Shown piece after piece: positions 6,001 through 9,000 of a stretch of DNA of 64,000 bases. The stretch lies in the NCBI RefSeq assembly GCF_057098645.1, contig NZ_CM169472.1, one strand, 5' to 3'. How positions within the stretch are numbered: the stretch's first letter is position 1; every line of letters starts with the position of its first letter. Position numbers: made by a program.

Positions 6001-9000
6001 TGTGCATTATCAACCAGTGTGCGACACGACAACCAAAGCGTGTCTGGGGGTTGAAGCGTTAATGCGCTGGCAACGCGAAGATGGTAAAAATATATCTCCG
6101 GTAGTTTTTATCCGCGCTGCAGAAGAGGAAAATTTAATAATACCGTTAACTAAACATCTCTTTGAACTGATTATTCAGGATGTACAAAGCTGGAAAGTGA
6201 AAAAGCCGTTTCACCTTGGGATAAATATTGCCGCGGAACATCTTGCACATCCTGACTTTGTTGGTGATGTTTTACATATTAAAAATGCAATATCTGATAA
6301 ATTTAATATTGTCCTTGAGATTACCGAACGCAATCTGGTTGAAGACACTGATCTTGCATTACAGAAAATAAATGAGTTAAGGATCCATGGCTGCGAATTT
6401 GCAGTTGATGATTTTGGCACGGGATATTGTTCCCTTGGCCTTCTGCAAAAGTTGTCTGTTGATTATCTTAAAATAGATAAAAGCTTTATAGACACACTCA
6501 CTACAGCGGAAGACGAAACGCCAGTTTTAGATATTATTATTAAGCTGAGTAATCGACTCAATTTGATAACGATTGCAGAAGGTGTCAGTACTCCTCACCA
6601 GGCAGAATATCTTATTCATAATAACGTGACATTAGTTCAGGGATACTTATATGCAAAACCAATGAAAGCGACAGAGTTTTATCAGTGGTATATAAACAGA
6701 TAAATATTAAAAATACTGGAATGGTTTTGTATTGTCTTAAAATATAAACAAAGCAATCAGAATGCTATTAACTGGTGACAAACGCCAGGATCAACAATGC
6801 TGTTAGTGAGTAATACATATGAATCGTGGTGTCCTGCCTGTAGAGAATACGTAGTTATAATCATTTTGACGCGTAACATAATAATTAATTGAAGTGTCTG
6901 CTTTTATGAAGAAATCAGAAGTGATATTTTCAAGGATTTCATCGCTAATGTTATCATCTTTTTGTATTTTTTGGATTTTAACTGTGGTGAGATAAACGGT
7001 ATCACGGAATTTATTGTATGTAAAACTCACATATCGGCGGATGAAGCCCATCTTTTTTCCATCTACCGTGTATGCGCCTGTGAGATACATGTTTCCTGTG
7101 TTATTTTCAGAAATCATATTTAACGAAAAATATTGATCCATTTTTGTATGATCGGTGAAATTAATAACATGGGCATTACATGATATGTTTTGCTCTGCTG
7201 GTTCATTGGAATGATGAAACGCAATATGGCTCAGAATTGCTGCAATAAAAGCACATAAAATTATTCCCGCAAACAGAAAATATCTTTGAGTCATATGATT
7301 ACTCCGCTTTATAATAGAGAGAGTTGCAATTATTTGGTGATTCAGAGTTTAACATTTGACTACAGGTGAAAGCATAAAACCCGCTCATGCTATCATTTGT
7401 TGCAATGTAAACGTAAGGATGTATTTTGCAGTTGACTTCCATTTTCTGCAATTTTTCAATAATCGGCGATAGCATGTCTACGGAATTAAAGTATTTATTA
7501 TCATAAAAATAACTGCATCCTTCCTGAGTAGGGTGTTGAGCATAATTTGAGAAAGCATCTATTTTTTTTATAGTGTGAGATTTGCTTTGAAAAGCCATAT
7601 CGAAAAAATAAGAAGATATATACACTATCCCCCATGCCGCAAAAAAACAAACTATAAGTAATGTATTCTTTGTGGTAAATATACCTTTTGCAACGTGATT
7701 TTTATTTATATTTTCAGTATGGGTGTCATTCTCTTCACTCTCAACACTTTCATTCTCATTGTGATTATTGTCGAGAACAGTTATGTTGATTTCTTCATTG
7801 ATTTTGAAGCCTTTACGTGGCACCGTTCTGATAACATCATTAAATATCGTCGCTGAGCTGATTTCACGAAAGGAACGCCTTATCATCGATATATTTTGAT
7901 ATAAAGTGTTGGTTGCGACTTCGGCACTGCTATCGCTCCAGACTTTTTCAAAGAATTGATTGTGTGACACGACACTATAAGCGTTATCTAAAAGTAACTT
8001 TAAGCATTTTCCCGCAGGATAAGTGAGTATCACTTCCTCTGATGTAAGGAGTGATGTTAACTTATTAGATGATGAGTTGAATCTTACTTCATCATTTATA
8101 ATGTAGATCATTACATTTTATACCTTAGTTGTGTATTACAAATCCAGTATTACTCAGAAAATAAAGGCAAGAACATTAAGTGCACTATAGTATAATTTCC
8201 TAAAAATGCAAATGTGAATTATCTGATTTTTAAGAATAATCTTGATTTAATTGAAATTCTTAAACGATGTATATTTCTATTAAATGCTTTCTGCAGTGAT
8301 GTGAATTAGGGGTTTTCTGCATGTACTGATAGAAACTGCGTATCCCCGTTATAGGGAAAGAACGGGTCGCATCCTCCACCCATGACACTAACCGTATGAT
8401 TGGTAGTTCCCTGCTGTGCACTTCTGGTGAAATAGAAGAAGCTCTATGCGCCGACCGATACTGTCTTTTATCCGATTATTTACCAGTGACACCTTGATAT
8501 GAGGTTATGTCTATTATTGCTAGGAGGTAATATATGCTTATGTTATTATCCAAAGCGCCAATAGTAATTTAGATAAAGATTATAGATCAGCAAGCAAATC
8601 CAGTCTGTTTTTTTGTGCGTACTGCATAACATCTATGATGACTATATTTTTACGTGATACATCACTACTTAAATGTAAATAAGATTTGATGTTTATTATT
8701 CATGCTGAGTTTTAACGTTTATATTTTTTTATTGAAACCTAAACATTACTTAAATTATACCTTAAATATTACTTACTCATAAGGATCAATGTGTGATATG
8801 AGCTTTTCTATTGAAGATTTTTCATTAGATTTTTTTTCATTACATAACAAGGTGGCCATCGTAACTGGGGCCGCGGGTGAACTGGGGAGAGGCTTATGCT
8901 CGGCTCTGGCCAAAGCAGGGGCTAATCTGTTGTTGGTAGACATCAAAGAGCCTGATAATAGATATTTAAAGCATTTAACTCATGAAGGCGTTGAAGTTGA

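Follow-up and report, generated by a model that had tools for sequence, protein, structure and literature searches.

A ToxR/ToxS-like gene pair at the edge of an O-island 47-type island very probably represents the GrvA–FidL co-component system of enterohaemorrhagic Escherichia coli

Which regulatory system is encoded by a gene pair resembling ToxR–ToxS, and which genes could it control? The pair lies at positions 6803-8111 of a 64,000-nucleotide stretch of DNA (contig NZ_CM169472.1 of NCBI RefSeq assembly GCF_057098645.1), which is referred to here as the window. An earlier note, made from the sequence alone, described a membrane-anchored winged-helix activator followed by a small periplasmic protein, and proposed that they couple an envelope signal to the adjacent phosphodiesterase, fimbrial or two-partner secretion (TPS) genes. 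Our analysis indicates that the pair is very probably the grvA–fidL operon of an O-island 47 (OI-47)-type island in an O145:H28-type Escherichia coli, working by a co-component mechanism with a periplasmic partner. The structural part of the earlier reading holds, but the pair had not been recognised as the named and studied GrvA/FidL system. This system is already published, and the present check adds no essential biology to it.

The 1.8 kb around the pair are 100% identical in DNA to E. coli O145:H28 (RM9872, 12E115) and 96.9% identical to many O157:H7 sequences. At the protein level, the O157:H7 counterparts share 98% identity for GrvA (264/270) and 96% for FidL (156/163; WP_000194260). The lengths of the two proteins (270 and 163 amino acids (aa)), the 4-nt junction, the neighbours and the promoter block are the same in O157:H7. 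The O145:H28 allele carries six amino-acid changes in GrvA and seven in FidL, and in O157:H7 a C within the candidate -35 hexamer of the grvA promoter is changed to G. The gene order in O157:H7 is pgaABCD, dgcT, pdeT, fidL, grvA, a short-chain dehydrogenase/reductase (SDR) gene, a chaperone-usher operon, TPS genes, a cluster resembling fatty acid synthesis (FAS) genes and ycdU, which corresponds to OI-47. Compared with this order, the window has no dgcT on the core side, and its island usher gene is broken by insertion sequence (IS) elements.

Two minus-strand open reading frames (ORFs) fill the interval; their coordinates had been given exactly, with the strand left unstated. The stop codon of grvA (TAA, 7301-7299) and the start codon of fidL (ATG, 7294-7292) are separated by 4 nt, so that the partner begins at the fifth base past the regulator stop, which is the 5-nt spacing of the earlier note. 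No terminator was detected in a scan 3' of fidL. The cassette has a G+C content of 33-34%, compared with 47.6% for the whole window. Its description as lying at an island edge is also apt: in Pseudocitrobacter the syntenic island ends with this gene pair, and in O157:H7 just the phosphodiesterase gene stands between the cassette and the core genes. The features of the locus are listed in Table 1.

In the predicted regulator, a winged helix is joined through one membrane helix to a C-terminal domain in the periplasm, as Pfam, hydropathy and the structure model agree. For both proteins the topology was taken from hydropathy, and the fold assignments of the periplasmic parts depend on predicted models. 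Trans_reg_C (PF00486), a DNA-binding domain of the OmpR/PhoB type, was detected in GrvA as its sole Pfam domain (E = 2.4e-11; 44 bits, the cut-off being 26.2). The top PDB sequence match of the winged helix is the DNA-binding domain of Vibrio cholerae ToxR (8b4b, E = 4e-7, residues 2-106), which outranks PhoB-family regulators and CadC. Only one 19-residue Kyte-Doolittle window of the protein exceeds 1.6, and it reaches 2.03 at residue 151. The tail past the membrane helix is 100 residues long and holds four Cys, which are invariant in the regulators of the regulator-partner pairs collected. The model of this tail, built from 24 homologous sequences, has a mean predicted local distance difference test (pLDDT) score of 78.9, and it shows a small alpha/beta domain with the ToxR/VtrA fold, as is typical of the periplasmic part of co-component transmembrane regulators (coTTRs). 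The model has no C-terminal helix, in agreement with the description of GrvA by Kinch et al. (PMC9214523).

Two other regulator types were considered for GrvA and rejected. A classical OmpR/PhoB response regulator does not fit, as a Response_reg domain is missing and the winged helix stands at the N-terminus, ahead of a membrane helix; NCBIfam PhoB- and VanR-type matches covered the C-terminal DNA-binding part only and fell far under their cut-offs. A CadC-type one-component regulator does not fit either, as the periplasmic domain has about 100 aa instead of the about 300 of the CadC type, and a partner gene is present. The CadC profile covered the winged helix alone, with 22 bits against a cut-off of 400.

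Hydropathy and the AlphaFold2 (AF2) model likewise support a single-pass periplasmic partner, in which an N-terminal membrane helix is followed by a periplasmic barrel. The hydrophobic segment of FidL peaks at 2.51 (Kyte-Doolittle) at residue 6. The AF2 model, with a pLDDT of 94.9, shows a helix over residues 2-29 and then an eight-stranded barrel. The top seven Foldseek matches of this model in the PDB are ToxS (8u2f, 8alo_B) and VtrC (8dml, 5kev, 5kew), with TM-scores of 0.50-0.70. An exhaustive phmmer search of 1.84 billion proteins found 81 representatives of the FidL family at E<=1e-3, and a word-indexed homologue search returned close E. coli relatives only. In an alignment of 69 sequences, Cys39 is invariant and Cys160 is at least 90% conserved; a Cys39-Cys160 disulfide of FidL was described by Kinch et al. 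(PMC9214523). Precomputed annotation places Pfam PF27292 (YqeJ_C) and PF15941 on the 96%-identical cluster representative of FidL, and PF27292 on FidL-like partners in other genera as well. RefSeq labels fidL as 'FidL-like protein', 'FidL' or 'YqeJ family protein', and grvA as 'winged helix-turn-helix domain-containing protein'. A PDB sequence search with FidL gave no credible match.

The pairing of the two genes is conserved. Related loci were collected by scanning one genome per species with a regulator alignment, which gave 27 loci in Enterobacterales, 26 of them usable. A FidL-like ORF, recognised with purpose-built hidden Markov models, lies directly 3' of the regulator in 22 of the 26. 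Once loci from other look-ups were added, 27 regulator-partner pairs (25 distinct) were available; in most of the related pairs the two ORFs share 8 nt when each is called from its first possible start codon. For the O145 and O157 alleles, the ratio of nonsynonymous to synonymous substitution rates (dN/dS) is 0.105 for grvA and 0.138 for fidL, which indicates purifying selection on both genes, along the whole protein in the case of FidL. The downstream ORF is thus a real gene rather than non-conserved noise, judging from the 81 representatives, the conserved Cys, the 22 of 26 loci and the dN/dS of 0.138.

The same data bear on the idea that the cassette is a decaying, functionless remnant in O145:H28, like marT of some Salmonella serovars. 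Its neighbours are indeed degraded here (pgaB frameshifted, dgcT missing, usher IS-interrupted), but neither ORF is broken or shortened, none of the conserved Cys or winged-helix motif residues has been lost, the promoter block is intact, and dN/dS is 0.10-0.14. We therefore consider a remnant extremely improbable.

Several related loci depart from the simple pair. Four related regulators are without a detectable FidL-like partner 3' (L028 and L030 of Mixta, L024 and L033). The Mixta regulators are short, at about 160-175 aa, and directly adjoin a chaperone-usher operon; they could be family members that have become truncated or soluble. Elsewhere two cassettes lie within a few kilobases, at L008 and L009 (8935-10309, 14789-16106), L017 (3537-4782, 9001-10318) and L021 (7183-8311, 8899-10237), in genomes of Trabulsiella, Citrobacter sedlakii and Candidatus Pantoea haifensis. 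These double cassettes recall the neighbouring Salmonella pairs STM0341/0342 and STM0344/0345 (PMC9214523).

Kinch et al. (2022; PMC9214523) placed GrvA/FidL within the VtrA/VtrC–ToxR/ToxS superfamily, and PMC13042144 includes GrvA/FidL among the co-component transmembrane regulators. The comparisons made here assign the pair to the coTTR family as the orthologue of O157:H7 GrvA/FidL and a paralogue of YqeI/YqeJ and MarT/FidL. The ToxR-ToxS arrangement proposed earlier is well founded, as ToxR/ToxS are the best solved relatives of all three modules by sequence and models. The Vibrio ToxR–ToxS system has the same domain order in both proteins, the same operon order and disulfide-forming Cys in the periplasmic domain; it provides the top PDB sequence match of the GrvA winged helix and the top Foldseek match of the FidL barrel. 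The two systems are not orthologous, however, since FidL reaches a structure-based identity of only 8-14%, and the periplasmic domain of GrvA one of 11%. GrvA differs from ToxR in having four periplasmic Cys and no C-terminal helix, and FidL differs from ToxS in having its own pair of Cys on the N- and C-terminal strands. The likeness is known here from sequence and models, and a bile response or porin regulon is not among the reported traits of GrvA.

The bile-salt receptor VtrA–VtrC of V. parahaemolyticus has the same co-component architecture. VtrC accounts for Foldseek matches 4 to 7 of FidL, and its interface with VtrA was the one used in the published GrvA/FidL complex prediction; VtrA differs in having no conserved disulfide (PMC9214523). 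E. coli YqeI–YqeJ and Salmonella MarT–FidL share the Cys pattern and the Pfam YqeJ_C domain, with regulators about 28-31% identical to GrvA and partners about 26-31% identical to FidL. In the tree they form a separate clade that is paralogous to GrvA; they belong to the E. coli type III secretion system 2 (ETT2) and Salmonella pathogenicity island 3 (SPI-3) regions, and their ORFs overlap whereas grvA and fidL are 4 nt apart. MarT activates the neighbouring adhesin gene misL (PMC9214523). Yersinia PsaE–PsaF is a co-component pair beside a chaperone-usher fimbrial operon, as grvA-fidL is beside the OI-47 fimbriae, and controls that adjoining operon (PMC9214523). Of the two pairs, PsaE–PsaF is the one with documented fimbrial control, and PsaF has diverged past confident sequence detection (PMC9214523).

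In enterohaemorrhagic E. coli (EHEC), GrvA (z1531) is described as a ToxR-family transcriptional regulator that lowers the expression of gadW and gadE and thereby frees ler from GadE repression (PMC10877973, PMC8565820, PMC6393859). As a result, adherence dependent on the LEE (locus of enterocyte effacement) rises and glutamate-dependent acid resistance falls in exponential phase, and these effects are called indirect (PMC10877973, PMC8565820, PMC6393859). Transcription of grvA is activated by RcsB, reportedly through direct promoter binding (PMC8565820, PMC6393859). The inputs documented for the system are transcriptional, namely RcsB and bicarbonate (PMC10877973, PMC8565820). The predicted GrvA/FidL complex reproduces the heterodimer interface of VtrA/VtrC, and dimers were shown experimentally for the relatives YqeI/YqeJ and PsaE/PsaF (PMC9214523). 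In the ToxRS model, bile-driven dimerisation of ToxS pairs two ToxR molecules (PMC13042144).

GrvA and FidL would be made together by translational coupling, and their periplasmic domains would form a heterodimer. By analogy with these systems, FidL may then stabilise GrvA, bind a hydrophobic ligand (for instance a bile salt or other lipid), or do both. It would thereby set the amount of membrane-tethered GrvA able to engage promoters. The direct targets of GrvA would include the adhesin operons of the island itself.

A narrower role of FidL is possible, though we hold it to be rather unlikely: FidL would be a stabiliser only, shielding the periplasmic domain of GrvA from proteolysis, and the signal would enter solely through RcsB acting on grvA transcription. 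ToxS protects ToxR and TcpH protects TcpP, which is established for the family and serves as a precedent for such partner protection. The sole documented input is transcriptional (RcsB, bicarbonate), and the four invariant periplasmic Cys of GrvA suggest that disulfide-dependent folding or stability matters. The high-confidence barrel model of FidL, on the other hand, is closest to the bile-binding barrels of ToxS and VtrC, and purifying selection extends over the entire protein. Both the barrel likeness and the selection are also compatible with a purely structural role of FidL.

The promoter region of grvA was analysed in relation to the RcsB input. The top promoter-like site consists of TTCACA (-35, 8218-8213), an 18-nt spacer and TATACT (-10, 8194-8189), with 10/12 consensus matches. 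It is a candidate only, because the region as a whole has no more promoter-like sites than expected from shuffled sequence. Between E. coli and Pseudocitrobacter, whose GrvA proteins are 50% identical, the longest run of identical columns in the 230 nt 5' of grvA is 8213-8250. Within this block, a TCAGATAATTC-like box occurs twice in tandem, at a distance of about 19 nt. The candidate -35 is overlapped by the downstream box (8213-8226), which matches that of Pseudocitrobacter at 14/14 positions; the upstream box (8231-8244) has an AAGA-N4-TCTT core and fits the RcsAB-box consensus at 11/14 positions. The block is likely to be the published RcsB site of the grvA promoter, as far as its sequence can tell. 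As a possible shared operator, TCAGATAATTC has no further copy at any other promoter in the window.

Several points weigh against the identification and the mechanism proposed for it. FidL had no meaningful match in NCBIfam or in a local Pfam-A searched up to E = 10. Because the local profile libraries miss FidL, its likeness to ToxS rests on the structure model. The missing match to PF27292 probably reflects that this family postdates the Pfam-A copy used; PF15941 likewise gave no FidL match in the local Pfam-A, for which we offer no cause. The RcsAB-box consensus has 5 matches across the window against 5.4 expected, which is not above chance, and the RcsB-box-like site was kept only on account of where it lies and of being conserved with Pseudocitrobacter. 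The statements on GadW/GadE and RcsB rest on the three reviews. In the literature (PMC9214523, PMC13042144 and the reviews) we found no FidL ligand, GrvA–FidL contact or direct GrvA site established by experiment. Finally, deletion of the whole OI-47 has been reported to raise type III secretion, which sits awkwardly with GrvA as an LEE activator.

The earlier note also expected the pair to control its neighbours. Comparative data give some support to this for the fimbrial and TPS genes and argue against the phosphodiesterase. According to one alternative view, the pair is a resident regulator of its own island, in which GrvA would bind the fimbrial promoters, the TPS/FAS-like promoters or both, and the effects on LEE and acid resistance would be secondary. 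Such a role is compatible with the proposed co-component mechanism and sharpens its step concerning direct targets; as an explanation of the pair we regard it as tentative and doubtful. Pseudocitrobacter sp. RIT415 has the complete island in synteny, and the cassette again forms its edge. There, L035 1-14986 corresponds to window 6803-27160: TpsB, TpsA (1270 aa) and orf207 are followed by a fimbrial subunit, a chaperone, the usher, a 444-aa fimbrial protein, a second chaperone, SDR, and the grvA-like and fidL-like genes; the structural genes are 75-89% identical to those of the window, compared with only 50% for the regulator pair, and no phosphodiesterase is present.

Adhesin genes occur inside the 9-kb flanks of the cassettes at 14 of the 26 usable loci, a count set only against our own estimate of roughly 5-10% per random 18-kb Enterobacteriaceae window. 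They are of the chaperone-usher type at L012, L013, L017, L018, L019, L023, L028, L029 and L030; L010 has a CS1-type usher, L016, L020 and L022 have TpsB or TpsA, and L031 has a YadA-type adhesin. The Pfam families met most often in the three nearest genes on each side of the cassettes include Fimbrial, PapD and ShlB. Two Kosakonia species and a Buttiauxella genome have a cassette that is divergent to orthologues of the TpsB and FAS-like genes of the island, namely TpsB, acpS, SDR, FabZ, aminomethyltransferase and ketosynthase (47-83% identical for the genes scored, acpS being placed by position and Pfam only). However, these cassettes fall in the YqeI clade of the tree and not in the GrvA clade, and sister Kosakonia species have the same cassette without TPS genes, so that the adjacency may stem from island insertion. 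Control of misL by MarT and of psaABC by PsaE/PsaF provides precedents (PMC9214523), but we found no experimental support in the literature for GrvA control of island genes. The promoter box TCAGATAATTC is not repeated at other island promoters, and in the window strain the fimbrial target would be defunct as its usher is cut by IS elements.

Control of the convergent CSS-EAL phosphodiesterase gene pdeT/vmpA (5105-6703), and hence of cyclic di-GMP, is very improbable. The adjacency itself speaks for it, with pdeT ending 99 nt from the fidL end. However, the two genes are convergent and share no promoter region, the orthologous cassette in Pseudocitrobacter has no adjacent phosphodiesterase, and no phosphodiesterase homologue was found beside other related cassettes within the stored flanks of the non-E. 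coli loci examined. The phosphodiesterase was therefore rejected as a GrvA target, its adjacency not being conserved.

An 'adhesion plus lipid' island is common to E. coli and Pseudocitrobacter, and partly to Kosakonia and Buttiauxella. In a broader version of the resident role, which we consider improbable, GrvA–FidL would be the ancestral regulator of this mobile island (TPS, type-II-FAS-like, chaperone-usher), its direct targets would be the adhesin and lipid operons of the island, and the effects on LEE and acid resistance would be later cross-talk. More speculatively, the FidL barrel might sense a lipid from the FAS-like cluster of the island instead of host bile salt.

Table 1. Coordinates of the grvA–fidL cassette and its promoter region in the window
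Feature	Position	Strand	Description or basis
grvA	7299..8111	-	270-aa ToxR-family transmembrane transcription regulator
fidL	6803..7294	-	163-aa ToxS/VtrC-like co-component, FidL/YqeJ family
GrvA winged-helix DNA-binding domain, OmpR/PhoB-type, residues 25-103	7803..8039	-	PF00486
GrvA single transmembrane helix, about residues 149-170	7602..7667	-	Kyte-Doolittle
GrvA periplasmic domain, residues 171-270, predicted beta2-alpha-beta3 fold, Cys 199/228/250/262	7302..7601	-	
fidL Shine-Dalgarno GGAG, within the last (3') codons of grvA	7302..7305	-	sequence GCGGAGTAATCATATG
FidL N-terminal membrane anchor, about residues 3-25	7220..7288	-	Kyte-Doolittle, AF2 model
FidL periplasmic eight-stranded lipocalin-like barrel, residues 37-162	6809..7186	-	AF2 model
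Candidate sigma-70-like promoter of grvA	8189..8218	-	consensus scan
Conserved promoter block, two tandem TCAGATAATTC-like boxes	8213..8250	-	alignment with Pseudocitrobacter
AT-rich intergenic region, 677 bp, grvA to divergent SDR oxidoreductase gene	8112..8788		32% G+C

The distribution of the cassette was examined in 5426 complete E. coli genomes. It is present in 410 of them (about 7.6%), in one case on a plasmid. Among the island carriers are non-EHEC isolates from baboon, guinea fowl, pig and fish as well as an O157:H16 strain. A 2024 review stated that it is found exclusively in O157:H7, O55:H7 and O145:H28 (PMC10877973); the cassette is distributed more widely than this. Between the O145:H28 and O157:H7 alleles, the synonymous divergence (dS) is 0.05-0.16 across the phosphodiesterase, fidL, grvA and SDR genes (window 5105-9580). 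The two lineages are described as having a recent common ancestor, for which such values look high, and the island alleles may have had separate histories or have recombined.

The genes on both sides of the cassette show further features. On the core side, O157:H7 (L002 9038-10396) and many non-EHEC carriers have dgcT (ycdT) between pgaA and the phosphodiesterase gene. It is absent from the window (4822-5131) and from O145:H28 RM9872, in both of which the distance from pgaA to the phosphodiesterase ORF is only about 280-310 bp. In the window, pgaB (735-2389) is split into ORFs 735-1190 and 1205-2389, and it is annotated as frameshifted in RM9872. The split of pgaB and the loss of dgcT suggest that the poly-N-acetylglucosamine (PGA) biofilm pathway is decaying in this lineage.

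On the island side, the usher gene (13335-15698, minus strand) is flanked by putative transposase ORFs (window 12144-17290). One is a 398-aa ORF at 12144-13340, IS110-family transposase-like by eye, and the other a 512-aa ORF at 15752-17290, IS66-family transposase-like by eye. This IS-flanked arrangement was found in no complete E. coli genome of the collection (>=80% of query), and the fimbrial operon is probably non-functional in the window strain. Farther along, window 25541-42000 encodes TpsB, acpS, SDR, FabZ, acyl carrier protein (ACP), an aminomethyltransferase and a ketosynthase, a type-II-FAS-like set with an ATP-binding cassette (ABC) transporter and a LolA-like protein. Orthologues of this cluster in Kosakonia quasisacchari, K. 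pseudosacchari and a Buttiauxella genome (L016, L020, L022) lie next to a YqeI-clade cassette.

The wider distribution, the synteny with Pseudocitrobacter and the conserved promoter block are small additions to the published system, and they make the direct targets of GrvA easier to test. GrvA ties the Rcs envelope-stress and bicarbonate signal to the LEE-dependent attachment and acid resistance of EHEC, and through FidL it belongs to the ToxR/ToxS-like co-component sensors by which enteric pathogens read the gut.

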